Assembly: GCA_030265305.1 (NCBI GenBank)
Contig: JASAOG010000245.1
Coordinates: 105,822-169,821, forward strand
Length of the DNA stretch: 64,000 bases
Origin: Biomphalaria pfeifferi
Lineage: Eukaryota
Direction: 5' to 3'
Part shown: one piece after another, positions 9,976 through 64,000 of the stretch
How positions within the stretch are numbered: position 1 is the first letter of the stretch
Layout: each line of letters starts with the position of its first letter
The notes under the pieces: generated by a model
Seen by the model: only the letters and a program-made list of their open reading frames with translations
The model's database searches: none
What the model was told of the DNA's origin: nothing
Program-made: the position numbers and the translations under genes

Positions 9976-10192
9976 TTACATTGGGATTCAAACTTGAGCC
10001 TCTTTGTCAGGTAGCCAAGAGGTTAATGACTCTCAACTCCTTTCCCCCCCCCCCCCCCTTGAAATTTCAACTTACAACAATGAGCTCAAGATATTAGTTT
10101 CCCAGCTTTAGTAATATTCTGATGGACAGTAACACACAGAAGTCATCTACCAGCATCTAATACTAAGAAAAAATAATGGACTTCATATTTTA

Positions 10193-10701
10193 TCATAACT
10201 TTTTTTTATCCGTCCAATAAACAAAAAATTCTGTATCACTAGGAGACAAAAGTACTTGAAATGACCATGGGGAGAGTTGAGTCGTAGTAAAGTCCTCGGG
10301 CTTACAAAGTGTGTCACCAAAGCCAGAGCTACTCTCACAGCTCAATTCATCAACAGCATGGACAATGTTCTGGTTGTATGTTGCTAAGTCTGTTTTGTTC
10401 AAAAGTCTTCCTGCTGGTAAAATGAATTCTGGCCATTTGGTCTTGCCAGCCGAGGTTAATGCTGAACGGGGCAAGGGAGGTAACTGGATGCATGGTTCAG
10501 TGTTTGATTCAGGCAGTGGATGTGAGCTTTTGTGAGACTTGTCACACGACTGCTCTAAGAAGAGAAGTCTGCTGTCTGGGTCTTCGTCAGATATCTGCAG
10601 ATAGCGCCCACCTGGGGCTAACACACGCACCACTTCAGACATCATCAACTGTGTTTTGAGGTGGCCTCGACTTTTATCTTTTAATAGTGCATCCATAGTG
10701 C
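10193..10701 (-). CDS. Same methyltransferase gene, terminal coding exon (stop TGA at 10193-10195)
   Basis: Acceptor ttttttaaattacag, phase-matched so the junction reads ...IIVDKG|TMDALL.... Encodes MMSEVVRVLAPGGRYLQI (post-motif II/III, cf. EEF1AKMT4 VLSEVSRVLVPGGRFISM) followed by a low-complexity C-terminal tail. Confidence 0.7.
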
Positions 10702-13575: not shown

Positions 13576-14285
13576 AAAATATTAATAAAACCGCTGACAA
13601 ACTGGTGAAAGATGTGGATTGACAAATGAATAAGAAATATCCCTTCATGAAGAAGAGGTGAAGAAGGCCATTACTTCAAACAAACATCCACACAAAAGTG
13701 ATAATTTTTTCTCCTGTAAGCTATTACACAACCACAATAATTTTTTACCTCTGGACAAAATTAGACAATAATGGGTGCCTTTGTTCAGCAACAAAATGTT
13801 GTATATCAATCTGGCCCAATCTGCATCAAAACCATAGATGCAAATAAACCTCTAAAGAAAATAATTCAAGAACAGCCTGAGTTGGAAATCACTGCATAGT
13901 TTTTGTTTTACAAGTTTGGAAGTTCCTTCAGAATGTAAGATTATTACATTCTAGCCCAAGTTTCTCTTCAGGATGGAGGGGGATGGTGGTGGGCAGTGTT
14001 CCAGCCTGGGTCCATCAAGGCACAGTCCAGATAGAACACCACATGCCCAAGCAGCCATCCATATTTGAGATAAAGACTAATTATATGACACTAACTAAAA
14101 TTAATAATAAAAATCAATGAATAGCAAAGATGGGTGCAGTGTTTCACATGACTATGCATACCCAGTTGTGACCTGCACATTTTACCGGATATCAAGCAGA
14201 CAAAGCCATTGTCCACTAGCAGTCTAATATATTATAATAAATTTACTCTTTTCATTATTTACATCAAGCAAGAAAATTAACTTAC

Positions 14286-19633: not shown

Positions 19634-20740
19634 ATGTCATCCCCTTCCAATTGGTTTACATCAGAAATTCAACAAATGATGTATGGCCTTGGAGATGCTA
19701 AGAAACCGCTTTTAGAGACGGCTGTTCTTGTGGAAGAAATAGTGCACCAACAAATGATGGCCACGATTTATCAAGCCAGTGAAATCTCAATTAGTCGAGG
19801 AGAAAAACAAATTTCTATTGAAGACATTCTCTTTCTCTTAAGGAAAGATAAAGCGAAATTAAAACGGATTTTAAAATATTATGAAGTGCGTGACATGAAA
19901 AATATCATCAAAAACACGATATCTGCTGCCGATGAGAGTAAAGTCGATCCAAGCACTATTCAGTTCCAAGAGAAAGTTTTGTTTGATAAGAAAATGTTGA
20001 GTAAAAACAGACAAATATGTTATGACTTTTTGAGTGCTATCGATCAAACAGGAGAGCTGATTGACCTATTTACTAACAATGAAATAGATCATGTCAAACA
20101 TGAGCGAATGCTGCGAGCTGAACTGCAAGCTCAAGGGATGGACACACAACAATACTTAGAGTTCTGTCAGGCTCGTCAAATCAACTTCTCCCGGAATCAA
20201 AATAAGTCTCCACGTTTCCGTGAGTGGCTGCAGGTGAACCTAAGTCCTGACATTGTCATCAGTCCCAATGTGCTAGAAATATTCAGCTATCTGGCATACG
20301 AGACTGTTGCACAGATAGTAGACTTGGCTCTTATTGTGAAACAGGACATGAGATCAGAACCTGGGGACTCTATAGCCAAAACTAGGCCTCCTTTGTGTAT
20401 AAATTATGGAGAAATATATGCCAACAGCATTTACAACAAACCAGATTCTGCTACTGGTGAACTAAACTCTGTCAATGATGTGAATAACTTAGCCCAAATC
20501 AAATCAGCCACAATTGGAAATCCTCAACTTGCTGCTGCTGCTGCACAGAGTAAGCTGAATAAAAAGAAAAGAAAGAAGTCAGATCCACCCACAAGTGTAG
20601 AATTGTCATGGGACAGTACCATATCACCAGCAAATGTGAGAGAAGTGATGCGGCGATACTACACAGACATAACTCCATTCACGTCGCAGACGAAGATAAA
20701 CTCCTTTTGCACCCCCTGGAGCAAAACACTTTGTGGATAA
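19634..20740 (+). CDS. SUPT3H: SUPT3H / SPT3 homologue (SAGA/STAGA subunit), complete intronless CDS of 368 codons
   Basis: ATG at 19634 (the track ORF starts earlier at a TTG). The protein contains ...EIQQMMYGLGDAKKPLLETAVLVEEIVHQQ...EDILFLLRKDKAKLKRILKY...QTGELIDLFTNNEIDHVKHERMLRAE...YLAYETVAQIVDLALIVKQDM, collinear with human SUPT3H. A possible acceptor ttttctttctag at 19527-19538 suggests a 5'-UTR intron. Confidence 0.85.
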   Translation: MSSPSNWFTSEIQQMMYGLGDAKKPLLETAVLVEEIVHQQMMATIYQASEISISRGEKQISIEDILFLLRKDKAKLKRILKYYEVRDMKNIIKNTISAADESKVDPSTIQFQEKVLFDKKMLSKNRQICYDFLSAIDQTGELIDLFTNNEIDHVKHERMLRAELQAQGMDTQQYLEFCQARQINFSRNQNKSPRFREWLQVNLSPDIVISPNVLEIFSYLAYETVAQIVDLALIVKQDMRSEPGDSIAKTRPPLCINYGEIYANSIYNKPDSATGELNSVNDVNNLAQIKSATIGNPQLAAAAAQSKLNKKKRKKSDPPTSVELSWDSTISPANVREVMRRYYTDITPFTSQTKINSFCTPWSKTLCG

Positions 20741-24146: not shown

Positions 24147-25875
<1,729 letters not shown>

Positions 25876-27450: not shown

Positions 27451-28239
27451 ATTAAAAAAATAATATTAACATAGATATAACATCTCTTTAAAACCCTAGA
27501 AATTGACAACCCAGTAGTTCAAAAGTAGGCCTATACACACACTGTGAAACACAACAATACAATAGAGTTGCAAATAAAATATTTATATTGAAAAGTTATT
27601 TATAGAAAAAAAAGTGTCCCCTAACCCTTCCCTGTACACCTCAACGAGTATAAGTTACCGATAGTTGGATAATGTAAGATATATACCTCCACATGACTAC
27701 CATTTTTTTTACGTTCTTTTTTAGTATATTGCACAGTATATAACATTCTTAGGAGGGTTTACTAGATAGTTGAAAAAGTCTCCAAGAATTATTTGACCAT
27801 GTGTGGAGTGACCCGACGTGGGGAACAGGAAAGTGGCATCATGAACAACCAGCCCCCCTCCCCCCTGTCCCAACCACGTCACATCTCCGCACGTGTTACT
27901 AACATCGGCCTGGTATTTACATTCAACACCTGCATCCCTCCCCACCAAACAGACACCTCTTTTTTTTTTTGTTCTGTGTGAACAGGGGGGAGGGGTCAAG
28001 ATACACAGACCAGGGGGCCAAGGCTGCCGGGCCAACAGCGACTCAAAACAAACCTACCATCCACTTTACTGAACAGAGGTGTGTGCGACTCATGGACCAA
28101 CTATGAATAATAATCTATTTACTATACACGCATTACCAGGACACACAATGACAAGGCTGGGAATACAAAGGCGGAAATTTCGCACCCAACTTTTGTGAAT
28201 ACGATCTAAATACGACCATATTTGAGGCATATGGGCAGT

Positions 28240-33927: not shown

Positions 33928-34745
33928 TATCTTCTTATCTTATATAATACAGACGTTACTTCAAAAAAGAAGATGATTACGTCCTACGCGTCATGCATTT
34001 AGTCATGCATATTAACCAATGACTTAAATTCTGCCAAGTCACTGGTTTTTCTGGCTAGCTCAGGCAACCCATTCCATGCTCTAATAGCACTAGGGAAGAA
34101 GGAGTATTTGTACAAATTTGTCCTAGCATATGGGACGAGGAATGTGCCTTTATTTTTGTGTCTTTCAGAGTATTTTATTAAATTTTGTTTTTGTATTTGA
34201 AGATTATGGTTCAGTGTTTTATGTATAATTGCTACTTTACTTTTGAGTCTTCTGTCCTGAAGGCTTTCTAAATTTAGTGATTTTACTAATGGTGTTACCC
34301 TAGTCAAATGTGAATATTCGTTTGTTATGAATCTCACTGCTCTATTTTGTGTTTGTTCCAGTTTCTTAATATTTTCTTGAGTTGAGGGGTCCCACACGGT
34401 GGATGCATATTCTATTATTGGCCTAACCAAGGTTAAATAACATTTTAGTTTTATGTTCTTATTTGATTTATAGAAATTTCTTTTAATAAACCCTAATGCT
34501 TTGTTGGATTTTTTTATAGTTTCATCAATATGTGGATTCCATGACAGTTTTTCATTTATTATAACACCTAGGTATTTTGAGTTTTTAGTCTGTGTTACTG
34601 CTTTGCCATGAATAAGATAAGTGGAATTAATTTGTTTTAGTTTTTTTGTTACTCTTAACAACTGACATTTTTCTGGGTGGAAAGACATGCTCCAATTTGA
34701 TTCCCATTTCTGTAATTCATCTAATTCTCTTTGTAAAATATCTGT
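33928..34745 (-). mobile_element. Non-LTR retrotransposon (LINE family 1, CR1/L2/RTE-like), 5'-truncated copy carrying the RT C-terminus and a 3' tail ending in (GATAA)n
   Basis: The 229-aa ORF 33999-34688 reads ...SFHPEKCQLLRV...IKRNF...LVRPIIEYASTVWDP...LESLQDRRL...YSFFPSAIRAWNGLP.... The 3' tail ...gtaacgtctgtattatataagataag recurs at eight or more sites. Confidence 0.8.
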
Positions 34746-38354: not shown

Positions 38355-39495
38355 AAATAGATGCTGGCTTACTAGATTTTTCTAAGGCATTAGACAAAGT
38401 TCACCACCATAGTTTGCTTAAAAAATTAAAATATGTCGGCATTAATGGTCCATTGCATCAGTGGATTAAAGATTTTTCTGATAGGGAGAGAACAAACTGT
38501 AATAATAAATGGCTCTAAATCAACACCGTAAACTCAGGTATACCTCAAGGAACAGTCTTGGGTCCACTACTATTTTTTATTTACATAAAGGATTTACCAA
38601 ATTGCATTACTTCAGTAACAAAAGTCATTTTATTTGCAGACGATTGCATAATATATAGAACAATAAAAACAACACAAGACACAGATATTTTACAAAGAGA
38701 ATTAGATGAATTACAGAAATGGGAATCAAATTGGAGCATGTCTTTCCACCCAGAAAAATGTCAGTAGTTAAGAGTAACAAAAAAACTAAAACAAATTAAT
38801 TCCACTTATCTTATTCATGGCAAACCAGTAACACAGACTAAAAACGCAGAATATCTAGGTGTTATAATAAATGAAAAACTGTCATGGAATCCACATATTG
38901 ATGAAACTATTAAAAAATCAAACAAAGCATTAGGATTTATTAAAAGAAATTTCTATAAATCAAATAAGAACATAAAACTAAAATGTTATTTAACCTTGGT
39001 TAGGCCAATAATAGAATATGCATCCTTCGTTTGGAACCCCTCAACTCAAGAAAACATTAAGAAACTGGAACAGACACAAAATAGAGCAGTGAGATTCATA
39101 AAAAACGAATATTCACATTCGACTAGAGTAACACCTTTAGTAAAATCACTAAGTTTAGAAAGCCTCCAGGACAGAAGACTCGAAAGTAAAGTAGCAATTA
39201 TACATAAAACACTGAACCATAATCTTCAAATACAAAAACAAAATTTAATTAAATACTCTGAAAGACACAAAGATAAAAGGCACATTCCTCGTCCCACATG
39301 CTAGGACAAATTTGTACAAATACTCCTTCTTCCCTAGTGCTATTAGAGCATGGAATGGGGTTGCCTGAGCTAGCCAGGAAAACCAGTGACTTGGCAGAAT
39401 TTAAGTCATTGGTTAATATGCATGACTAAATGCATGACGCGTAGGACGTAATCATCTTCTGTTTTGAAGTAACGTCTGTATTATATAAGATAAAG
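38355..39495 (+). mobile_element. LINE family 1 copy, 5'-truncated, RT domain with inactivating mutations
   Basis: Translation contains LDFSKAFDKVHHHSLLKKL...SGIPQGTVLGPLLFFIYIKDLP...ILFADDCIIY (the FADD RT active site)...SFHPEKCQ*LRV (a nonsense codon where the 33928 copy has QLL). The same 3' tail ends at about 39495. Confidence 0.8.
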
Positions 39496-41392: not shown

Positions 41393-41925
41393 CCTTATCT
41401 TATCTTATATAATACAGACGTTACTTCAAAACAGAAGATGATTACATATGCATGATATGCATATTAACCAATGACTTAAATTCTGCCAAGTCACTGGTTT
41501 TTCTGGCTAGCTCAGGCAACCCATTCCATGCTCTAATAGCACTAGGGAAGAAGGAGTATTTGTACAAATTTGTCCTAGCATAGGGGACAAGGAATGTGCC
41601 TTTATTTTTGTGTCTTTCAGAGTATTTTATTAAGTTTTGTTTTTGTATTTGAAGATTATGGTTCAGTGTTTTATGTATAATTGCTACTTTACTTTTGAGT
41701 CTTCTTTCCTGAAGGCTTTCTAAATTTAGTGATTTTACTAATGGTGTTACTCTAGTCAAATGTGAATATTCGTTTGTTATGAATCTCACTGCTCTATTTT
41801 GTGTTTGTTCCAGTTTCTTAATGTTTTCTTGAGTTGAGGGGGTCTCAAATGGTGGATGCATATTCTATTATTGGCCTAACCAAGGTTAAATAACATTTTA
41901 GTTTTATGTTCTTATTTGATCCTTT
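41393..41925 (-). mobile_element. LINE family 1 copy, 3' 530 bp
   Basis: ORF 41442-41861 is more than 90% identical to the C-terminus of the 33928 copy. The 3' tail at 41393-41460 is shared. Confidence 0.8.
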
Positions 41926-46559: not shown

Positions 46560-48660
46560 CATAGTTTATTTACAAAATTATCTCATTTCATTTCAATGTC
46601 ATACTAGATAACAAATCAGCTACAATATTCACAGATCCACTAATAGCTTTCACTTCAAATTTATATTCCCGTAGTGCTAAGAACCATCTATATAAACGAC
46701 TGTTTTTCATACTCTTTTGTTGTATATACTGAATAGGTTTATGATCAGTTAATAATATGAATTTCCTCCCTATTTAGTAACTCTAGCTTAGTAATTACCC
46801 ATATTAAAGCTAATGCTTCCCGTTCAATGACACTATATTTTTTTTATGCCTCTGATAATTTTCTACTTACATATAATATAGGATGTAAGTTATCATAGTT
46901 CTGCATTAGACAACCACCAATAGCACTACCAGATGCATCAGTTGTGACATAAAATATTTTGTCTTTATCTGGTAGTCTCAATATTAATTCATGACTAAAA
47001 ATATCTTTAATTCTGTCAATAGCTTTCACACATTCCTCATTACAGACTACTTTTTGAGGTTTTCTTTTTTTAAGTAAATCATTTAATGGATTCACTATTT
47101 CTGCTAAGTTCTTTATGAACTTTCTCTAATAATTTACTATTCCTAATATGTTTTTAATTTGTCTTTTTGTTGTAGGTATTTCAATATTAAGTACATTCTT
47201 TATGTCATCTTCAATAGGGCTAATCATGTTGTTATTTACTTTATGTCCTAAGAAAATTATTTCCTCCAATCCTATTTCCACTTTTTCTGCCTGAATTGTA
47301 AGTCCACTTTCTTTTATTATTTTGAACACTTCTTTTACATCTACCAAATGTTCTTCCCAACTATTATTAAAAATACATATGTCATCCAAATAACAAATAA
47401 CATTTTCTTTATTTCCAATTATCATGTTCATCATTCTATTAAATGTGGCTGGTGCATTTACTAACCCAAAACTCATATAATTCCATTGAAAAATACCACA
47501 TGGTGTTACAAATGCTGTGTAAAGTTTTGCATTTTCTGTTAATGGTATTTGCCAATAACCTTTAGTTAAATCCAATTTAGTAAAAAATTTTGCTCCATTT
47601 AATTTATGTAAAATATCCTCTATATTTGGCATTGGATATGGGTCAAATTCTGTGATGTTGTTAAGTTTCCTATAGCCAATACATAACCGTATATCTCCAT
47701 TTTTCTTTTTGGCTATCACAATTGGTGAAGCATAAGGTGATGTTGATGGTTCAATTATACCTGATTCTAGTAAATTGTCTATTTCTTTTTTTACTTTGTC
47801 TTGTAAATGTAAAGGTATTCTATATGGCTTAAGCTTGATAGGTTTTGGATCAGCTACTTTAATGTCATGTTTAATAATATTTGTTTTTCCTGGTATTTTG
47901 GAAAAAATTTCCTTGTATTCCTGTATTATTTTAGTAATATCTTTTGACTTTTCCTTAGTTAAATTATTAAGATTAATCTTTTGCCAAGTTTGATTCTCGT
48001 TTGTTTCTATTACAAGTATTTCCTTAATGTCATTTTCATTGTGATTTTCATTTGTTATTATCATCAAGCACTCTTCTCTCTCTGAAAACCTATTTTCTAT
48101 TTCCTCCTGAATGTTTTGTATCAACTCATCTTCTCTATCATGATACAGTTTCAAATTATTTATGTGATATGTTTTAATTTTCCCATTTATTTCAATATGA
48201 TAATTCACATCACTAATTTGTTTTATCACCTTAAATGGACCTTTCCATTGTTTACCAATCTTATTTTTGAGATCATTTATTAATATTAATACACTGTTTC
48301 CTACTTCTAGTGTTTTTAATTGTCTTTTCTTATTTATATTCTCATGAGCACTTTGTTTGTACTTCTTATTGTTATTATATGCTTGAGTTTATATTTCTTT
48401 CAATTCTGTTGTGATTGTTGTTTCATTGTCCTTATTTAATCTATTCTCATTGTCTATTAGATTTTCTTTGAAAACATCTAATTCATCTCTGGGTTTTCTT
48501 CCATGTATTATTTCATATGGTGAAAATTGTGTTGCTTCATGGATGTTGTTTCTATGAGCAAATAGTACATAGTTAATGTAATGATCCCATTTATTCTGAA
48601 TTATTATTGTCAGTGATCTTTTCAGTGAACCACCATGACGTTCACATAAACCGTTACTCT
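46560..48660 (-). mobile_element. Degenerate internal region of a Ty3/gypsy-type LTR retrotransposon with IN-RT-RNaseH order (Gmr1-like arrangement)
   Basis: Order read 5'->3' on the minus strand. (1) 48660-48230 integrase core/C-terminus: HPESNGLCERHGGSLKR...FSPYEIIHGRKPR...VGNSVLILINDLKNKIGKQWKGPFKVIKQISDVNYHIEING. (2) 48229-47126 RT: ...KLDLTKGYWQIPL...YLDDICIF.... (3) 47095-46600 RNase H: ...TTDASGSAIGGCLMQ...RKLSEA*KKYSVIEREALALIW...DHKPIQYI...RLYRWFLALREYKFEVKAISGSVNIVADLLS. Internal stops are present. The 5' side is truncated at a LINE fragment (48668). Confidence 0.75.
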
Positions 48661-48667
48661 CTGGATT

Positions 48668-48912
48668 CAGTCATGCATATTAACCAATAAATTCTGCTAA
48701 GTCACTGTCTTTCCTGGCTAGCTCAGGCAACCCATTCCATGCTTTTATAGCGCTAGGGAAGAAGGAGCGTTTGTGCAAATTAGTCCTAGCATATGGAACG
48801 AGGAATGTGCCTTTATCTTTGTGTCTTTCTGAGTATTTTATTAGATTTTGTTTTTGTATTTGAAGGTTATGGTTTAGTGTTTTAAATATAATTGCTACTT
48901 TACTTTAGAGCA
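48668..48912 (-). mobile_element. LINE family 1, 3'-region fragment abutting the LTR-element fragment
   Basis: The segment gtcatgcatattaaccaat...ctggctagctcaggcaacccattccatgc... matches 34010-34260. It lacks the terminal (GATAA)n. Confidence 0.7.
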
Positions 48913-53545: not shown

Positions 53546-53577
53546 AGTGGTCATCATCGAACCTCGATGGACGAACT

Positions 53578-53593
53578 ATATATATATATATAT

Positions 53594-53640
<47 letters not shown>

Positions 53641-53656
53641 TAGATATATATATACA
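53578..53656. repeat. (TA)n(GATA)n microsatellite forming the 3' tail of LINE family 2
   Basis: Read directly. It sits immediately after the ORF2 stop of the 52830-53545 copy. Confidence 0.9.
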
Positions 53657-53849
53657 CAATATCTCTTTACTTATAGCAAAATACGGAAAACACTCTAGGT
53701 AAAACATTCATTTTATCAGCCGTTGTAGTTGTAAAACCTGTTCTACACAAACCTACATCTGATAGTATTAAAAGAATTTCTTTAAGCAACAATACAGTTC
53801 AAAGGAACATCGGTGGTATTGTCCTTCAAACTATTCACTTTACCAAGAG

Positions 53850-53945: not shown

Positions 53946-54129
53946 CTCTTGAATGCAGCAATTTTATAACAGCTAACTGATTATAAACTTTTAAGCTATT
54001 ATTAACTCATCTTAGACGAGATGATTCGTATCTGGGGTTATTTTCTACTTTTTTGTTTGTGTCATTTGAAGAGAACAAAAATTGTCTGAAATCAAGCTCT
54101 CAAATATATTTGAGAATAGATGACGAATC

Positions 54130-54240
54130 AGACAAAACTTCTGACATCTGCTAGGGCAGGGGTTCTCAACCTGTGGGTCGAGACCCCCCTTGGGGGGTCG
54201 ATTGACGATTTGCCAGGGGTCGCCTAAGACCATCGAAAAA
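54130..54240. repeat. Interspersed repeat fragment (family E; core ggttctcaacct...gggtcg.gacccc...ggggtcg)
   Basis: Partially matched by 48913-48965 (gcagtggtcttcaacctttttggcctaccgccgcc). Contains an internal palindrome gggtcgagacccc. Confidence 0.35.
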
Positions 54241-54337
54241 ATGGATTGTTATTGTCTTTTCTTCTGTTGCTGTATGTATGTTCGGGGGTGGGGGTGGGGG
54301 TCGCGGCAGAGTGGGGGATTGTAAAAAGGTCTTGTGG

Positions 54338-54481
54338 TCACACAACAGTATCATCTACCATCGACTCTTTCATTAGGTAAGTGATGTAGTTGAACAGGTC
54401 AATCCAGGCTTGCTCCACTTCCGATGTCCAATGGTCCTTTAAAACTGGCCGGATAGCGATTATGAAATGTGGTCCTACCAA
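54338..54481 (-). CDS. Globin-like gene copy A, terminal exon (G/H helices), stop TGA at 54338-54340
   Basis: Acceptor gcgttcactcacag|TTG. Encodes LVGPHFIIAIRPVLKDHWTSEVEQAWIDLFNYITYLMKESMVDDTVV*. The pattern LG..(W/F)TPEV..AW..L(F/Y) matches neuroglobin/cytoglobin ...[25 protein letters not shown]. The intron sits at the conserved phase-0 G7 position. The paralogous copy at 62759-62890 is conserved at the protein level. Confidence 0.5.
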   Translation of the reverse strand: MVGPHFIIAIRPVLKDHWTSEVEQAWIDLFNYITYLMKESMVDDTVV

Positions 54482-54582
54482 CTGTGAGTGAACGCAGAGG
54501 AAAAATACATTATCATTATAAAGAGACATAATATAATAAAGCAAAATAATCTCATCTAACATCATGACATCATAAAACATCA

Positions 54583-54752
54583 GGAGGGATGTCTGGTCGT
54601 GCGGTATTCGCACTGGACTGTCGTTCGGTCGTCCGGATGGTTCCGGGTTCATACCCAGCCACCTGAGCCTGCTGCCATCCCGCGTCGTTCTGCAGGAGGT
54701 TTGAATTAGGAAGTAACTTATCTTCAACTCTGAAGTAGCACCCGAAACATGT
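54583..54752 (+). mobile_element. Repeat family A copy, inside the last intron of globin-like copy A
   Basis: Matches the family A consensus. Confidence 0.7.
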
Positions 54753-55689
54753 CTTGTAGAACATAATACCATAAAATCATTTAGTATCATAATGCGGCAG
54801 TAACCTCAGCAACTAGCTCTGCCTTTTTCTAAAAGGGTCTATAACGGAAGTGCTATGACGTCATTTGGGAGCGCGGTTTGTCGGGAAATTGGTTTTAGTG
54901 GGGCTAGGGTCATTTGTAGACAGGATTTCGTAGAGGAAGGTTGTAGACTAAAAGTTGGTAGACGGTACTTAGATAGACAAGTCACATAATTTTGAGTTGT
55001 ATATTTAATAAACTTGTTAGAATCTATTTTATAACGAGCTCAGGAGAAGATATTCAACTTGTACTGTTTCATTTTGTGCACTATTTATATTGATTCCTAG
55101 TTCCTGAATTAAAGTTTTTGTATTTTGAATTAAAGTATCTTCATTTTTTGAATTTCTAAAGATATTTAAAGTATATATATATATATATATATATGAATCC
55201 CCGGCATCACATGTTCTTTGAGTGTTTAATAAAGATCAGAGATAAGTCTTCAATAAACCAAGTACTAAACACTATAGTAGCCTCAAGTCACGGAACAGTG
55301 GCGGTTACAGTATAGGAATATGAGGTAAACTCCCCATGGTCAGCGCTGCTCTCGGCCACTTGTAGCGAGTGGACCCAGAACCGGGGGCTGCGCGCTGTGT
55401 ACGTGGTAAGACCCCCCCCCCCCTCATGCCCAGTTATTATGGGCGTCACTGCAGGGAGCCCTCAGACTGGAAAGGGCCTGGTTGTTGGATAAAAGCCTTT
55501 CTAACAATCAACGGGATAATGGCGCCCTCGTAGGCGCCGATTCCCTACTGGACTTCATTGAAGGTATCTGCAGCGTCTCAAGTTCTGCCAGGGTGTAACA
55601 CTAATTGCTGCGATCTGCCTAGGGTTTATCGGCTCACGATGTTTCCTTAAGGTTGGTTCCCGAAGCCTTTCCAAGTTGCATTGCGTTTA

Positions 55690-55890
55690 TGGCAATGGTT
55701 TGAAATAAAAGAACAATTAGCAAATGACCCCCTTATTTTCAGTTTGTGCACCTTTTTACAAAGCTTATATCAACTCACTCAGACAGTCTGTCTGTCTGGT
55801 AAAAAACTTTGTACGCGTTATTTGTCTGACACTCAATCTGGGATCAAGCTGAAAATTCGCTCCAATATTTCTTTTATCTGACAACAGAAG
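55690..55890 (-). mobile_element. Repeat family D copy, head-to-head with the 56100 copy
   Basis: Reverse complement of the family D consensus (ctgtctgtctggtaaaaaa...). Confidence 0.6.
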
Positions 55891-56099
55891 AATTGAAGAG
55901 TATGCAAGCTCATAGTTAATAGCCATGAACTAATATTAACAAGCAAAATATAGAAAAAAATTTTTAAAAAAAAAAAAAAAAAAAAGCTTATCTAAAGGGG
56001 AAATACTCCGTCTTTAAAAGTATATCTACCAATAATGTAATAGCTATTTCCCCTATTCAATATCAAATAAAATAATGAATTACAAATAAATAATTGACT

Positions 56100-56860
56100 A
56101 ATTGATTATTTTAGTTTATTGATTCATGTTTTGTTAGGTACAATAAAAAATTGTTTAAATTATCAACTTGATCGGAGAATGCGTGAGGGAGAAATAGCGT
56201 TAACAATTATTTAATGGGACTAAGCCCAACAAATTTAGCCAGATCTGTGAATACTGAAGTTTCCCTTGTTGCTATTAAACAAAATAATGCACTACCAGTA
56301 TTTAATTGTCTAACTGGCTACTTTTGTTTGTATTGATTCATGTCTTGTCTATGTCAATGAATAATTGTGCAAAGTGATTCATGTCTTGTCTATGTCAATG
56401 AATAATTGTGCCAAGTGATTCATGTCTTGTCTATGTCAATGAATAATTGTGCGAAGTGATTCATGTCTTGTCTATGTCAATGAATAATTGTGCGAAGTGA
56501 TTCATGTCTTGTCTATGTCAATGAATAATTGTGCGAAGTGACTCATGTCTTGTCTATGTCAATGAATAATTGTGCGAAGTGATTCATGTCTTGTCTATGT
56601 CAATGAATAATTGTGCCAAGTGATTCATGTCTTGTCTATGTCAATGAATAGTTGTGCCAAGTGATTCATGTCTTGTCTATGTCAATGAATAATTGTGCCA
56701 AGTGATTCATGTCTTGTCTATGTCAATGAATAATTGTGCGAAGTGATTCATGTCTTGTCTATGTCAATGAATAATTTGCGAAGACTCAGCTTGATCTGAG
56801 AACGGGTGTGAGAGAAATAACATGTACACACTTTTTACCAGACAGACAGACAGGTTTTTT
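56100..56860 (+). mobile_element. Repeat family D element whose 5' 41 bp has been tandemly amplified 11 times
   Basis: The family D consensus is ...ttgattcatgt.ttgt..aggtacaat.aataattgtgcgaagt..cagcttgatc.gagaa.gggtgtgagagaaataacatgt.caaactttttaccagacagacagac.g.gtgagttgatacaagctttgtaaaaa. In this copy the 5' unit gattcatgtcttgtctatgtcaatgaataattgtgcgaagt is repeated 11 times (56334-56787) before the element continues (cagcttgatctgagaacgggtgtgagagaaataacatgtacacactttttaccagacagacagacag). Confidence 0.65.
56334..56787. repeat. Tandem array, 41-bp unit, 11 copies, derived from the 5' end of a family D element
   Basis: Unit gattcatgtcttgtctatgtcaatgaataattgtgcgaagt, with c/g variation at the gcgaagt/gccaagt position. 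Confidence 0.9.
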
Positions 56861-57825
56861 TTCAAACTTAGAGCTCGAAGAGCCTTCGGCTCAGCTCTTG
56901 GACAATCAAAAGTATCTCACTTTCCTCTAATTTGTACTTTTCTAATTATTTTAATTAACTGTGACCTTCTAGAAACTGACGTCTGCTATTTTTTCCCCTT
57001 AACCTCTTTCTCTGATTGGATGACTATAATTAGCTTGTTTACTCTGGTCATCTCTGACTTGGCCTGGGCTTCTAGATACTGGTCGAATTACGTCACAGTA
57101 TCGACTCGTAACAATCTGTGGCATTTTACGTCTCGAGAGACGATCTTTTCCCTTTGCAACTTCTTGTGTGACGAAAGAGGCCATTCCTTGATAAGCAGCT
57201 GCGATCGCAGGTTGGGCATATGTGATCACCAGGCGCCCGTTGCATTATCACCCTTCTTTCTGCTGCTGTTGTGTATGACATCTGGAATCCGAGACCCTTC
57301 CTTTATGTTCTCTCTCTCCATGTGGATTTATCCAGTGCTACTCGTGCCAATATCAAAGTGAGAAACAAAGAGTAATCTTGAGATGTGAAACCTTCTCTAG
57401 GCGCCACTATCCCGTTGCCAGGTCAGAAGGATTTGATCCAGTGGTCATGCGCGGAGATCTTCACCCTAAGTCCTGTCTGAAGGTTCCATAATGGCAGCGT
57501 CCATAAATTGGCTAAAGATTATACCAGCAGACGTGAGCATGTTGTCAAGTGATACAAATGGCACTTCCTAACGATGTCAAATAAGAACAAATTCATTGCG
57601 CCAATAGATACAACTTTTTTTTGGAACTGAACTTGTTTTTCTTTGTGTATGAAAATGCAGACATTTTGATGTCTGTTAGACGCTGAAGTCTGAGAAAATG
57701 TTAGCGGCTATGATAGCAGATATGAGATCTTAGTCTGTTTATAGTCTGATTTTTTTTTGTCTGTTTTTTTAATATCAGCTTTTAAAAAAACAACAACATT
57801 GAATTACATGTACCGAAACATTAGA

Positions 57826-58052
57826 ACAGTGTCGTAGCTAGGGCTTTGGGGGCTCGGGGCGCTTGACCTCTTTATGGGCCCGTGCATTTTGACATTCGAC
57901 ATCATGACATGAGATAATGGCGTAATATTTAATGTAAAAACAAATTTCGGACGATCATTTAAGGGCCCCTTTCAAGTTGGGGCCTGGAGGATTTCAAATT
58001 TTGACTCCTCCCTCCCTCATCCTAGCCATTCCTAGCTACGCCTTTGACATAA
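57826..58052. mobile_element. MITE-like element copy
   Basis: Termini cagtgtcgtagctagg / cctagctacgcc. The internal segment ttgacattcgacatcatgacatgagataatggcgtaatatttaatgt is identical to the 28240 copy. Confidence 0.7.
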
Positions 58053-58629
58053 TAGCAATTTTAAAAAACACTATCTGGATCTAAATCTTTATTCCGTCAA
58101 GAGGCAACCCTCGGGAGGCATCTTGCCGGTCCCAAGCCCGGGTAAAGGAGGAGGGTTGGGCGGGAAGCTAGCAATTCCACCTTATTAAAAAAAAAGCACA
58201 AAGCTATTTGAGTCAAAAGGATACGGTCAAGTAAGTCAAATCTATACCTGATGTTAATTCTCAGTACATTAGTTTGAAAAAATTGCACGCAGACCCAGGC
58301 CAAAAGTAATCATCGGGTTCATGTCACATGAATTCCATTAATCCATTGGCTCCAACAAGCGGTAACTAGAGGAAACACACGGAATTTCGCTCTCCAAAAG
58401 TGTTGGTACTTCAAGAGTTAATTTGCGTTATCTGTACCACTGCAGACGTCAGCGCTGCTGCGCTTAATAACTGTCTACATCTGAAATGTTTGCAAACTAT
58501 AAAATATATGGATCAGTGGTAATTACATAGAAAAACTTGCCTCGATCTGATGTAAAGCTGAAAGAGAGCTAATTGTGTATGTTATCTTATTCATTACTAA
58601 AGTAGCTTACACGTACCTATGTGCCAAGC

Positions 58630-58762
58630 TATGTCGTTCAGGTTTATCAATGGTCCCGGGTTCAAACCCTGCCCGCTCTTATCCCCCGTCGTCCTGCGGG
58701 AGGTTTCGACTAGGAAGTAATTATCTTCAACTCTGAAGGAACATCCGAAACATGTATAACAT
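58630..58762 (+). mobile_element. Repeat family A copy, 5'-truncated
   Basis: Matches the family A consensus. Confidence 0.7.
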
Positions 58763-59489
58763 TTTATAAACAAATTATTTTATAAACAAGCTAACTAGAT
58801 GTATTAAACATTGAATATATTTATATATGGTTTTGTCATAGTTTAAGACATGACTCAGTATCAAAAGTGAGCCTTCAAGGTACAGAGGAGCGAGCAGGAC
58901 GAAAGGGTCGTCTAAACAAAAACCTGGTTGGATATCATCAAGCAAAGCAAAATACAAAGAAATAACTTTAAAAAAAATATTAAAAAGCTTACCGTAAGTG
59001 TATTAATTACTTTGGATCAGTCGTGTAGATTAAATATGTAATAGATCTAGACTATCAATAATAAATCTTTACGATTAGAAATATTTTACCCATTGCTTTA
59101 TTTTTTTAGCGCAATTTCATGCTTTTAGCTTTCTCACTACCCTATGTTCCTATCACTTGTCTGAACCAGTAGGAAATGGGTAGGGGGAGAAAGAACGGGG
59201 TATCTGAGTGATCGCTTTTTAAATGTATTTTTAAAAAAGGGAATGACCTAAATTGGTCAACGCGGTAACCACTCTACTAGCGAAGAGTCCATGAACTTTG
59301 AAGATGGTATCTATTGTTTCTATTTCTTATTTATGTTCACTAAGCCTCCGACCACAATCTATAAAGGGGACTAATTCAGCTTATACCACCACTTCAGCGA
59401 AGTATAAATTCTTTCCCTTGTTTGAGATACCAAACAAAATAATTTATTATCAATAGTAAAATAACTGTTTAATTTTTTAAATGGATTCT

Positions 59490-59600
59490 TGTGTTGCAAG
59501 GTAAAAGAAATAATTGTGCACAGTTTCGGCTTCATCCGAGATTTGGTTGTCTGAGAAATATTTGCCAGACAGACAGAATGAGTTGATACAAGCTTTGTAA
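59490..59600 (+). mobile_element. Repeat family D fragment
   Basis: The segment ...aataattgtgcacagtttcggcttcatccgagat...tttgccagacagacagaatgagttgatacaagctttgtaaaaatgg matches the family D consensus. Confidence 0.5.
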
Positions 59601-61189
59601 AAATGGACCGGTCTTTCTCTTGATATCCTACTAAGAAAGCTGCTGACCATGGAAAGTTGAGGGAATCGGTTACCCGTGACTATGACAGCAACAGTTGTGG
59701 ACAAGGGATATATTATGATTTTGGTGTCGATATTTATGATATACATTAGTCACTTGTAGGAGATGTTATTGTATTGTTGTATCAATTAGTCTTTCTCATT
59801 ACGCTATAGTCCTATCACTTATCTGGATCCATTGGGTAAATCGAGGGAGGGGGGGGGAGAGAGAGAAAAAAAAGGTTGAAAAATTTATCTTTACCTACGT
59901 TAGGGCCCTCAATTTCTCTTTAGTTCATTAGTTTTACGTTGATTAAATGGGACTCTGAATGTAGAATCTACCCAAAAAAAAAAATAAAAATGAACGGATC
60001 TTTTTTATTTTGTGGAACATGACAACAAGCCAATAAATTTGATTTGTAAAGAAAGTGTGACGTTTAAAAAAATTTTTTTTAAATGTAAACAGCATTTTAA
60101 AACAAATATGGCGTCATTCTTGATTTAAGGCGCGAATACAATAAATACTTCTACGGATTGGAAGATCGATGGGAATATTTACTAAAAAAGGGAAATTGAG
60201 TCGTTGTAGCTACAAAGCTGCTTAGATTTTAAGTACAGAAATTAGGCAATTTTCTGTCGCGTGGAAAAGAAAAAAGATAAGCTTCAGATATCCAATTCAT
60301 TAATGTAAGTACTAGATCCAAGGGTTTCTAATCAAATAGTTTCAAATTCAAGTCAATTTCGATTCGTTATTCGTTCATGTGGCCCGCGACAGGAGTGTCA
60401 GAAATTAAAATGGCCCGCGGGTCGAATTAGGTTGCGCATCACTGATTTAAATCCATGTCTACACTAAAACACTCAAGCACCCATTTCTGATGTAGCAGTT
60501 AAACAGTTTGAACATTTAAAATGTAAACGTAATGCAACATACACTGGGAAATTCTATGCATTGAAATTTATAGTTTTGAATCACATGAATTTAAAATGTA
60601 TAAATCTAGCAGCAGTGTCACAAGGGTCGAAGTCACCCGGTGCAGTCCGCACTCCTAGTGACGCCACTGCTCCTCTGTACAGTATACAACACAAAAGTTT
60701 ATATTAAATGAAATTTCAAACTCGGCTACAAATGTGTAGAACTATTTATTGGGTGTATTTGCAATAGAATAAAATCATAAATACAAATAGAAAATACTTC
60801 ACATTAATAAAAAAAAATAAAACAACTTTTAACTAATTCTTTTGAAAAAATCTGGTCACAATTACAAAAAAGATATTTTCTACTTTGTCCGTAATTAAAT
60901 ATTATTTTGTTTTTAAACTCAAAAACGACAAATCAAGGCCATTATCAATAGTACACATTATATACACTTTATATTAAATAGGGTATAGGCCATACACATT
61001 CTGTTTAAATGAACATTGTTATTTTCGTTTTCCGTACGGAGAACTATTAACGTTTCTAACAGTTATATAAATTCAAAAATTGGATGTGCCTATTTGGCTG
61101 GCAAAATCAATTTCGTATCTCTCTTTGTAAAAAAATAATTTTGGAATTTATTTCTATCTTAATCAATTTCAGCTTACTCAGTAATCAGG

Positions 61190-61425
61190 GGGCGCTGTGG
61201 CCGAGTGGTTAAGCGCTTGACTACCAAACCTGAAGTCCAGGGTTCGAATCTCAGTGAAAAAAAAAAATGGGATTTTGAATTTCGGGATTTTTTGGGCGCC
61301 CCCGAGTCCAACCAACTGCTGGCCATACGACATCCTGCATGTTAACCGTTGGCCAAAGAAACAGATGACCTTAACATCATCTGTCTTATAGCTCGCAAGA
61401 TCCGAAAGGAGAATTAATCAGTTAA
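61190..61425 (+). mobile_element. Interspersed repeat family B (about 240-270 bp, tRNA-derived SINE), reference copy
   Basis: Head ggggcgctgtggccgagtggttaagcgc...tccagggttcgaatctcag carries tRNA-like D- and T-arm boxes but is not a cloverleaf. An A-run is followed by a body ...gagtccaaccaactgctggccatacgacatcctgc.gttaaccgttggccaaagaaacagatgaccttaacatcatctg...atccgaaaggagaa. Confidence 0.75.
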
Positions 61426-62199
61426 CATAAATTTAAAAAAAAAAAATTAATTTGTTTTGAAGTCATTGCTAGATATAAAGAGTTGCTTAACTGGGAACTG
61501 CGGGCTACATTCTGCCATCTCCCTTCTTCTGTATTTAAGTAAACGTTTTTCAGGTTTTGTATCTTTAGCGATAAACTAAAACTCTTGCCTCGTTTCGAGA
61601 AAACTATTACCTAGCACAAAGGTCTACCATTAATGGCGCGCATGCTGAATCATAGTTTTTAAAGGGAGAGCACTCCCATTCCATTTACACTGTAACCATG
61701 GCAACTGTCCAATTTTTTTCTGTCAAAAATAGCAACACAATTCCGGATAACCAATTACTTTAAACAAAACTTGTTTAAGCAGTAACTCAAAGTACACAAA
61801 AGTTGTACGAAATTGGCTTGTGCTCTACGCATGAGCATCGTGGCTCTCACAAATGGCGGTGTCACCTGTTTTCAAAAATGCCTGTTTCGTCTCCCGTCTG
61901 TAGGCTATGTCCATAAAAACGTGTTTTAAAGATATTACCAGAAGCTAACTTTATACTTTAAAAAAAAATGTGAATGGATGCACAGCATAGACATGAATCA
62001 GAGGAAGGTACTATATAATTATCGTATTAGATTTGGCTGGTTTCATAACAGCCAATAGATCATTGAGCTGCTATTATTAACTGCTCCATTAGATTAGACA
62101 ATTCTTATATTTTACTGCTGTTATTATCTGCTTTCTTTTTTTTTTTTCTTGGAGGAAAAAAAAAGTGCCTGCGTTGAAGCCATCGGAAATACTCCAGCA

Positions 62200-62510
62200 T
62201 AGGTGACGAATCAGCCAATCATCTGCTGTCTTTTGCTAAAGCGTTGTCTGCTTATTGGCCAATTACCTTGCACGGGTCTTTAGCCTCTGACGTAAATGTA
62301 TACATTTGATTTGTGTTTGCGGGTGTGTTAGAAAGGAGAAGGGGTTAACTGTGCAGGTGTGTGTATGTGTGTGAGTGCGTTTTGTTCGCCACAAAACCAA
62401 TTTGCAAAGTGGTCAAGTCAAGGCACCTGATGCAAATAAAATAAGCCAGCCATAATGTTAATTGTTATATAAACAGGCGGGGCATACGTCCGAACAGAGC
62501 CAATGTAAGA
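62200..62510. promoter_or_regulatory. Promoter-like block: four CCAAT boxes (one as inverted ATTGGCCAAT), a CRE half-site TGACGTAA (62288-62295) and TATATAAAC (62466-62474)
   Basis: Motifs read directly from the sequence. The region is GC-richer than its flanks and lies between the two globin-like terminal exons. Orientation is unresolved: the CCAAT-upstream-of-TATA arrangement fits + strand transcription. Confidence 0.3.
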
Positions 62511-62758
62511 TAAATAAACCCTCCCTGATCACTGCGCAAGCGCACACGAGTTAAAGGCGATTGAAATAAAACATGAAATATCGGTAGATCAGAAAATACA
62601 AAAATGAATACTCCCTTGAACTCGATATTGCTAGAGAGTTAAGGTCAATGTCATTCAAGTTCATCTTTGGTGAAGTGCTACAAGTGATCGAGCACTTGTT
62701 CCAGCATTGGGAAGAAGGTTCGCCTGGTGCAAGTGTCCGGCTTTGGGAAAACACGTGA

Positions 62759-62890
62759 TCACATGACCATTGTCTCTTTCATCAGGTGAGTGATGTATCT
62801 GAACAGGTCGGCCCAGGCTTGCTCCACTTCCGGTGTCCACCTGTCCCCTAAGGCAGGCTGAATGGCGGTGTTGAACTGTGGTCCTACCAG
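62759..62890 (-). CDS. Globin-like gene copy B, terminal exon, stop TGA at 62759-62761
   Basis: Acceptor gctttcgttcacag|CTG. Encodes LVGPQFNTAIQPALGDRWTPEVEQAWADLFRYITHLMKETMVM*. About 65% amino-acid identity to copy A with mostly conservative substitutions. The flanking intron shares acatcat-rich motifs with copy A's intron. Confidence 0.5.
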   Translation of the reverse strand: MVGPQFNTAIQPALGDRWTPEVEQAWADLFRYITHLMKETMVM

Positions 62891-63595
62891 CTGTGAACGA
62901 AAGCAAAAGAGAAATAAATTAGCACCACGACGCACCCTAAAAACATAAGATCATGTTACATCATTACATCATGTTACACGATAACATGCTACAGCATGAT
63001 ATATCTTACCCATTACACCATGTTACATTATTGTCACGTGGTGTATGCATCAAGGTTGTCACAGAAATATAAACAGGAAGTTGGTTGTTTTTTTTAAACA
63101 CTTTGGCTTCTAGTAGTTTCGAGTTCTTTAGCAGAAGAGTAAATAATGTAGAGAGAGATAATTTGTTTCCGGTACATTCGATTTTTTAATTTGTGAACAG
63201 CCTATAAATAGAAGTGACGCACTTATGTCTGGGTCCATTCAGTTCATGTTTTTTTTTAGCTTTATGTAGGATTACTTTTGTGAATTTATTATAGAACTAG
63301 CATTACCCATTGGCTTCGCCCGTTAATTTGTTCCCAGTCAATATTTTGTGTATTTTAGCATCGCTGGAAATGATACAAAGATTGATAAAAATGATACAAA
63401 GATTGCTGGAAATAATTCAAACATCGCTTGAAAATGATACAAAGATGGCTGGGAATGTCAGATATAGCAAGAGCTATTTCGGCAGTAGCTAGCTTTTGGT
63501 GGCGACAGAGAGTTGCTTGCGACAGGTAGAGATTATCTGAGACAGACTATCTAAATTTTATCTTGTATTACATCTAGGTTAATTTGTCGAAAAAT

Positions 63596-63657
<62 letters not shown>

Positions 63658-63775
63658 GGATGGATAGACAGACAGAGGAGACAGGCAGGCAAATAGATAG
63701 ATAGAGAGAGAGAGAGAGATATAGGAGAGAGTGAGAGAGAGAGAGAAAGAAAGAGAGGAAGAAAGACAGAGACAT
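63596..63775. repeat. (GATA)n / (GA)n compound microsatellite
   Basis: Read directly. The minus-strand ORF 63551-63826 is an artefact. Confidence 0.95.
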
Positions 63776-64000
63776 AGATTGTGTTTGACTGAGTGAGTGA
63801 TAGAGCGAGTGATTGAGTTGGTTCAATTACACGCCTCTACAACTATTGGGTATCCAATTTCCGTGTGTATCAATTGGTTTATTCTGATCAATAATTCATC
63901 TTACAACTGACACTATGAGTTACCACTATGAGTTGGTTTGGCTTTCAGAAATATAGGGCAGGGGCGGAGCGATACAATCGAAACAGTTCTAGTTTATTTA

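Follow-up and report, generated by a model that had tools for sequence, protein, structure and literature searches.

Tandemly duplicated exons that are used as alternative or mutually exclusive exons are a general phenomenon, and so are alternative last exons. N-acylated GbX-like globins, which occur in protostomes as well as deuterostomes, were reportedly described by Blank and Burmester in 2012. The GbX-like (GbXL) globins have three exons, with introns at B12.2 and G7.0, lack an intron at E10.2 and carry acylation motifs, all of which sets them apart from GbX proper (Prothmann et al. 2020, PMC7457136). Here we analyse a stretch of 64,000 nucleotides from the snail Biomphalaria pfeifferi (GenBank assembly GCA_030265305.1, contig JASAOG010000245.1, positions 105,822 to 169,821 of the forward strand; hereafter the window, in whose own numbering positions are given unless stated otherwise), which contains two paralogous exons, called A and B below, both encoding the C-terminal end of a globin. 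Judging from its identity with a sequence of the related snail B. glabrata, exon B is the last exon of an already annotated globin gene. With its three exons, its introns at B12.2 and G7.0, the lack of an intron at E10.2 and an N-terminus that reads MGLSCS, this gene resembles the GbX-like class, an assignment made from these features alone. As for exon A, we give a slight preference to the reading that it is a lineage-specific duplicate of the terminal exon and that it serves, or served until recently, as an alternative last exon. We know of no GbX-like gene with a duplicated terminal exon, nor of any earlier case of G-H module swapping through duplicated exons in an animal globin; if true, this would be the first. 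The host snail, a vector of Schistosoma, is medically important.

The two terminal exons and the gene of exon B

The two exons are both read from the minus strand:

62759..62890, minus strand: exon B, terminal (third) coding exon, from G7 to the C-terminus and the stop (from translation and the family profile described below)
54338..54481, minus strand: exon A, a second and unannotated copy of that terminal exon, with an intact open reading frame (ORF) in the same phase

Translation gives LVGPQFNTAIQPALGDRWTPEVEQAWADLFRYITHLMKETMVM for exon B and LVGPHFIIAIRPVLKDHWTSEVEQAWIDLFNYITYLMKESMVDDTVV for exon A, each followed by a stop codon. This confirms the coordinates, strand, acceptor and stop that had been assigned to both exons in an earlier inspection of the letters without database searches (the sequence-only reading). 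In both cases the acceptor consists of a pyrimidine-rich tract followed by ...tcacag, and the exon starts in phase 0. The paralogy proposed at that stage holds, but the identity between the peptides, put at about 65%, is 71% (30 of 42 amino acids; tblastn E=1.5e-17). At the DNA level the exons belong to a repeat pair, 54357-54515 and 62766-62924, with 79% identity over 159 nt and a spacing of 8409 nt; no third copy of the exon peptides was found in the window by tblastn (next match E>0.3). Exon A differs from exon B by 12 replacements and by 12 nt inserted in frame ahead of the same TGA stop, so that its product has an acidic C-terminal extension of four residues (tail VDDTVV).

Both segments are genuine globin coding exons. 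The sequence-only reading had recognized the G and H helices of a globin in them and had proposed to check this by scanning the peptides against Pfam PF00042. Such a scan of the peptides alone is not significant: the bare 43-aa B peptide scores 13.7 bits (E=0.093, positions 87-115 of the 117 of the Globin profile) and the bare A peptide gives no match, which means that this test would have led to a wrong rejection of the finding. A word-indexed protein search with either peptide returned nothing either, a result that is uninformative for queries of 43-47 aa, as the same search missed proteins of the collection with exact shared stretches of 18 residues. An exhaustive HMMER search of the protein collection, using a profile made from the two peptides, brought 200 proteins at E<=1e-3, of which 46 reached E<=1e-10. 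Many of these relatives are 190-240 aa long and are matched at their C-terminus; the full-length ones carry a Pfam PF00042 record, and direct scans of them give 63-71 bits (cut-off 22). On the same scale, the full protein with exon B reaches 63.1 bits and the hypothetical A isoform 58.8 bits.

A family hidden Markov model (HMM) of 194 positions was built from 25 full-length members and run, with filters off, on the 3518 six-frame fragments of the window. It matches exon B with 67.9 bits (E=1.6e-19, profile positions 147-189) and exon A with 67.4 bits (E=2.2e-19, within profile positions 147-190), the next-best fragment being at E=1.2. The G-H helix assignment is thus borne out by E-values of about 2e-19 for each exon, together with the Pfam scores of the full isoforms, and the claim that A and B are real coding exons is upheld as well. 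An independent HMM, built without any heterobranch sequence, gives 68.2 bits for A and 64.0 bits for B. A model of ten globins ranked exon B first of the 3518 fragments and picked up no other exon; we treat this as a lead only.

The gene to which exon B belongs is best described in B. glabrata. There, a protein recorded as 'neuroglobin, partial' (P0158, 155 aa) is cut off precisely at the expected start of exon 3, and appending peptide B to it gives a sequence of 198 aa that is found verbatim as XP_055878640.1 and XP_055878641.1, 'neuroglobin-like [Biomphalaria glabrata]' (UniRef entry A0A2C9JQU3). Three GenBank records of this globin, KAI8787758.1 and KAK6997653.1 of B. glabrata and KAK0042285.1 of B. 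pfeifferi, are labelled 'partial' and stop at the end of exon 2 (155 or 74 aa). Exon B has in common with XP_055878640.1 the last 43 residues, the acceptor and the G7.0 intron; exon 3 differs by one synonymous base in 126 nt and the flanks are 88-97% identical. The gene is located at OX365775.1:53189224-53206986 of assembly GCA_947242115.1 (locus L007). Positions 60534-64000 of the window align to this locus at 88-90% overall, non-coding DNA being about 10% diverged between the window and the B. glabrata assembly. A unique GT-AG solution reproduces the protein, with exon 1 at 10001-10242 of the locus, a phase 2 intron, exon 2 at 13804-14026 (ending in ...CCCGAGTTCTTGGAC before the gt of its donor), a phase 0 intron and exon 3 at 27632-27763. 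Intron 2 is about 13.6 kb long, which apparently makes gene predictors overlook exon 3. If the arrangement is the same in B. pfeifferi, exon 2 of the window's globin gene would be found some 12.5 kb past the end of the window; that the upstream exons of copy B are to be sought there had been rightly anticipated.

Intron positions were placed by HMM alignment to human beta-globin, the sequence and introns of which are well established. The split codon of intron 1 corresponds to Arg30 (B12.2) and the first residue of exon 3, with which A and B both begin, to Leu105, i.e. G7.0, in agreement with the intron position proposed from the sequence. His residues are present at E7 and F8 (beta-globin His63 and His92) of the B. 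glabrata protein and are encoded by exon 2, outside the window. This three-exon structure recurs in the homologues of Candidula and Aplysia, where the introns measure 10-26 kb, and in these two species as in B. glabrata exon 2 runs uninterrupted from B12 to G6, i.e. without an E10.2 intron. The N-terminus, MGLSCS in Biomphalaria, reads MG[LIQT]SCS in seven other heterobranch homologues; by inspection, MGLSCS fits the myristoylation pattern G-{EDRKHPFYW}-x(2)-[STAGCN]-{P} and has a Cys nearby, and can be regarded as a putative N-acylation motif of the myristoylation/palmitoylation kind. The close gastropod homologues, i.e. those of Candidula (197 aa, plus a paralogue of 202 aa), Arion, Aplysia (annotated as 'neuroglobin'), Lymnaea and Elysia (197 aa each) and Bradybaena (198 aa), share 68-83% identity.

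The best PDB matches are 7z1u, a plant class 1 non-symbiotic haemoglobin (E=4e-12), cytoglobin (2e-11) and neuroglobin (about 1e-7); these globins all belong to the hexacoordinate type, and the relationship is distant. Neuroglobin, unlike the snail globin, is without the N-terminal extension of about 50 residues that contains the acylation motif. Orthology with vertebrate neuroglobin was considered and rejected, since the match to neuroglobin is weaker than those to the plant haemoglobin and to cytoglobin; 'neuroglobin-like' is a label only.

Extent, constraint and age of the duplication

The sequence-only reading had taken the two exons for parts of two tandem genes and expected the upstream exons of copy A in 54.5-62 kb. 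Neither proposal stands. When all six frames of the 64 kb were searched by tblastn with seven full-length relatives, A and B were the only matches, and tblastn combined with the family HMM (filters off) detected no homologue of exon 1 or exon 2 in 54.5-62.8 kb or anywhere else in the window. This absence is meaningful because exons 1 and 2 are highly conserved in the family (e.g. GVVMFMGL and LRSHVLRVMGAVEKVVARL), and thus detectable. Likewise, comparison of the 1.1 kb upstream of B with 54.5-62.8 kb, by tblastx and blastn, revealed no shared upstream exon. Homology between the copies is limited to two collinear blocks: block 1, 54357-54573 and 62766-62972 (72% over 217 nt, E=2.5e-35), which covers the exon and about 90 nt of intron, and block 2, 53962-54153 and 62041-62238 (67% over about 200 nt, E=2.8e-20), which is otherwise single-copy in the window. 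With two collinear blocks and no match to exons 1 and 2, it follows that only a terminal-exon segment was duplicated. As judged from the alignments, this segment is about 0.6-0.9 kb long and comprises the terminal exon together with the last 90 nt or so of intron 2 and a portion of the 3′ flank. Its parts, and the repeat that adjoins exon A, are:

62891..62972, minus strand: 3′ end of intron 2 before exon B (pyrimidine tract and CAG acceptor), homologous to the intron tail of A (block 1)
54482..54573, minus strand: intron tail and CAG acceptor before exon A, homologous to those of B (block 1)
62041..62238, minus strand: downstream duplicated block, B copy (block 2)
53962..54153, minus strand: downstream duplicated block, A copy (block 2)
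54152..54329, minus strand: dispersed repeat directly after the stop of exon A, 85-88% identical to unrelated places in two B. glabrata loci (L005 and L007)

Two (GATA)n microsatellites, at 53572-53660 and 63582-63690, flank the duplicated region and are out of register with the exon duplication. Between exons A and B, at 56242-56858, there is a tandem array of a 41-nt unit in about 15 copies at about 95% identity.

The substitutions that separate exon A from exon B are clear signs of past protein-level constraint, and they are not those of a sequence decaying neutrally. In neutral simulations, exon B was mutated at random and the outcome scored with the HMM built without heterobranch sequences. 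Under uniform mutation (15, 20 or 27 changes), none of 9000 simulated sequences, of which about 3,900 were stop-free, reached the score of A; mutants with 10-13 replacements had a mean of 35-41 bits (sd about 7), as compared with 68.2 bits for A. The outcome was the same under AT-biased mutation (0 of 1881 stop-free sequences; maximum 59.8 bits) and when codons 1-17 only were mutated (0 of 2041 stop-free sequences; maximum 61.5 bits). Depending on the simulation, 49-80% of the sequences gained stop codons.

A test of site variability, based on the entropy across 114 non-heterobranch members of the family, points in the same direction: entropy is 2.67 bits at the 12 replaced positions versus 1.62 bits at the 30 unchanged ones (Mann-Whitney p=0.0017). 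None of the 12 positions conserved at 80% or more (G3, F6, A9, P12, L14, W18, E23, A25, W26, L29, F30 and M37) is altered in A, and every A-specific residue is seen in other family members. In the beta-globin register, the replacements are found at G11, G13, G14, G17, G19, two positions of the GH corner, H2, H9, H13, H17 and H22. Positions H9, H13 and H17 are on one helical face, and G8, G12, H15 and H19 are unchanged. The exon 3 peptides of Arion, Aplysia and Lymnaea are identical to each other, which indicates that exon B is under extreme constraint and that nearly all of the 12 replacements took place on the branch of A.

Codons 18-34 deserve a comment. Between A and B there is no synonymous difference in the 14 unchanged codons of this segment, and yet codons 27 and 31 display 3-nt and 2-nt differences; this mosaic fits neither simple neutral divergence nor gene conversion. 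We reject gene conversion as an explanation for the conserved codons, because the differences at codons 27 and 31 break the identical stretch and because the selection signal holds in codons 1-17 alone.

The age of the duplication can be appraised from the synonymous (dS) and non-synonymous (dN) distances:

A versus B: dS 0.50, dN 0.196
B versus B. glabrata: dS 0.037, dN 0
B versus Candidula: dS saturated, dN 0.058
B versus Aplysia: dS 2.6 (effectively saturated), dN 0.031

In non-coding sequence the copies are about 67% identical, versus 88-90% for the two Biomphalaria genomes. In addition, A and B both have Leu at position 36, a derived residue that replaces the Val of Aplysia, Lymnaea, Arion and Candidula. 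Taken together, the dS values, the non-coding identity and the shared Leu36 indicate a lineage-specific duplication that predates the split from B. glabrata. By these measures of sequence divergence, it is a planorbid event, several times older than that split and far younger than the heterobranch radiation.

Possible uses of exon A

Selection on exon A at the protein level would imply that it was translated, and since it has a phase 0 acceptor and no upstream exons of its own, splicing from the donor of globin exon 2 is the only simple route. The series of events could have been as follows. A partial duplication left exon A 8.4 kb downstream of B on the same strand, where it retained its acceptor, phase and reading frame and gained its acidic tail of four residues. 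The exon 2 donor would be spliced either to B or to A, in the latter case bypassing B together with its poly(A) site. We infer that the two resulting isoforms would have a common heme pocket (E7, F8, G8, G12, H15, H19) and would differ in the outer G/H surface and the tail, so that the change would concern an interaction surface and the tail rather than heme chemistry. The positions changed in A overlap the G/H surface of the haemoglobin alpha1-beta1 contact. That exon A is a working alternative last exon, one gene thereby providing two membrane-anchored GbX-like globins whose binding to partners, or whose oligomerisation, would be adjusted by the choice of exon, is possible, although on balance we are inclined to doubt this stronger version.

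How does the pair compare with known tandem alternative exons? Exons A and B are like them in having the same phase, a nearly equal length, the same strand, intact acceptors, open frames and divergence at surface positions. They differ from them in being 8.4 kb apart with repeats in between and in having their own stops, so that the use of one or the other would be coupled to the choice of a poly(A) site. If it is spliced, exon A would amount to a natural experiment on the role of the G/H surface in membrane-bound GbX-like globins. It appears to be an unannotated coding exon of the kind that gene predictors overlook, born of an exon-only duplication and kept under protein-level constraint.

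Several observations weigh against the use of A as an alternative last exon. The A-type protein is absent, by exact look-ups, from a collection of 15 billion proteins: all were negative, whether for seven ORF versions containing A or for three chimeras of the A type (exon 2 + A, and the B. glabrata A-isoform at full length in each of the two strain variants). One partial sequence of exon 2 + B was not found either. Exon A is in no annotated product of the B. glabrata neuroglobin-like gene, for which RefSeq has two transcripts, both coding for the B-type protein. The 10 kb that follow exon 3 in B. glabrata, Candidula and Aplysia contain no exon resembling A; synteny with B. glabrata extends only as far as position 60534 of the window, about 2.2 kb after the stop of B, and A could sit further off in that genome. 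In the window itself, a repeat lies directly after the stop of A, and there is no canonical AATAAA within 1.7 kb after that stop. Finally, the branch of A has a dN/dS of about 0.7 by our own rough estimate, which looks like relaxed constraint, and its 27 changes include 19 from GC to AT versus 5 from AT to GC, GC content being 44% in A versus 56% in B.

For much the same reasons, the rival that survives best is that exon A is a non-functional relic of the partial duplication, never or no longer spliced and not yet disabled. Besides the missing annotation, the lack of a recorded A-type protein and the lack of an exon like A in the first 10 kb past exon 3 of B. glabrata, it has in its favour the dN/dS on the branch of A, the AT-biased drift with its fall in GC content, the insertion of a transposable element right after the stop, the loss of the conserved 3′ flank that follows B and the fact that 20-50% of the neutral simulated sequences were stop-free too. 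We nevertheless regard it as unlikely: the replacements are strongly non-random, avoiding every conserved position and introducing only residues known in the family, the independent HMM gives A a score on a par with that of B, a level that no neutral simulation attained, and acceptor, phase and an in-frame indel have all been kept. If unspliced, A would be a well-dated case of slow decay in a constrained-looking exon relic.

It is improbable that exon A is part of another transcript, either a chimeric gene with non-globin exons or a non-coding or antisense RNA originating from 62.2-62.5 kb. While the interval 54.5-62.7 kb is unannotated in the related genome and includes conserved patches (61.4-61.9 kb and 60.6-60.9 kb), the intervening sequence consists mostly of repeats, scans of 52-64 kb for Rfam families and tRNAs found none, and what is conserved in A is a globin G-H hairpin, the folding of which depends on helices A-F. 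Still less credible is the notion of two complete tandem globin genes, with exons 1 and 2 of A in 54.5-62.7 kb and a promoter in the 62.2-62.5 kb block, because, even though the exons are on the same strand and the window's densest CCAAT cluster, accompanied by a CRE and a TATA-like site, is found downstream of B, tblastn and the 194-position HMM find A and B only (next E=1.2), homology between the copies ends about 90 nt upstream of the exon, and the block is within the conserved, gap-free 3′ flank of B, with CCAAT sites mostly on the plus strand.

The 3′ flank of exon B and other features of the window

The block invoked as a promoter overlaps the following feature:

62232..62758, minus strand: conserved 3′ flank of exon B, probable 3′ untranslated region (UTR), 94-97% identical to B. 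glabrata, gap-free, without a counterpart after exon A

The sequence-only reading had described a CCAAT/CRE/TATA block at 62200-62510 as sitting exactly between the two copies and as promoter-like. The motifs do exist, with five CCAAT/ATTGG sites instead of the four reported (at 62215, 62254, 62259, 62397 and 62500), TGACGTAA at 62288 and a palindromic TATATAA at 62466. But their location was misjudged, as the cluster (62215-62504) is 250-545 nt downstream of the stop of B and about 7.7 kb upstream of A. Nowhere else in the window are CCAAT sites as dense (5 versus 0.69 expected per 311 nt); after correction for about 200 windows the value is about 0.17, which is not significant alone. Most of the CCAAT sites are on the plus strand and would fall downstream of a TATA on the minus strand. 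As there are no exons that it could drive, a promoter at this site is unsupported. A scan for bacterial-type promoters and terminators gave background levels and is irrelevant to this host.

The simplest reading is that the motif block would be part of the 3′ UTR of exon B, which fits its location inside the gap-free stretch after the stop of B. The 527 nt of this stretch are as conserved as the exon, whereas the adjacent intron is only 83-91% identical to B. glabrata; conservation falls at about 62230, just past an AATAAG. No canonical AATAAA is present within 1.6 kb after the stop of B, the first one being at 61152. Further downstream, the patches 61741-61840, 61448-61645 and 60675-60872 are, like 62232-62758, 94-97% identical to B. 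glabrata, as against 73-92% for their surroundings. The conserved stretches downstream of exon B could, on this comparison, represent a long conserved 3′ UTR or regulatory elements.

Elsewhere in the window, two uninterrupted ORFs stand out. The first, of 431 aa at 24150-25442 on the minus strand, encodes a complete SMAD (MH1 E=1.8e-41, MH2 E=1.1e-66), the exact protein not being on record by exact look-up; the lack of introns, in a genome where globin introns exceed 10 kb, suggests a retrogene. The second, of 367 aa at 19637-20737 on the plus strand, is also intronless and has a TFIID-18kDa / SPT3-like domain (E=1.4e-26); its exact protein was likewise not on record by exact look-up. A reverse-transcriptase ORF (RVT_1 E=6.8e-35) occupies 47129-48229 on the minus strand. 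Short dispersed repeats at 33933-34235, 39191-39493, 41394-41687, 48670-48898 and 54152-54329 are common to B. glabrata loci, with 85-95% identity, and positions 47780-48661 match positions 1-891 of locus L007 at 94.5%.

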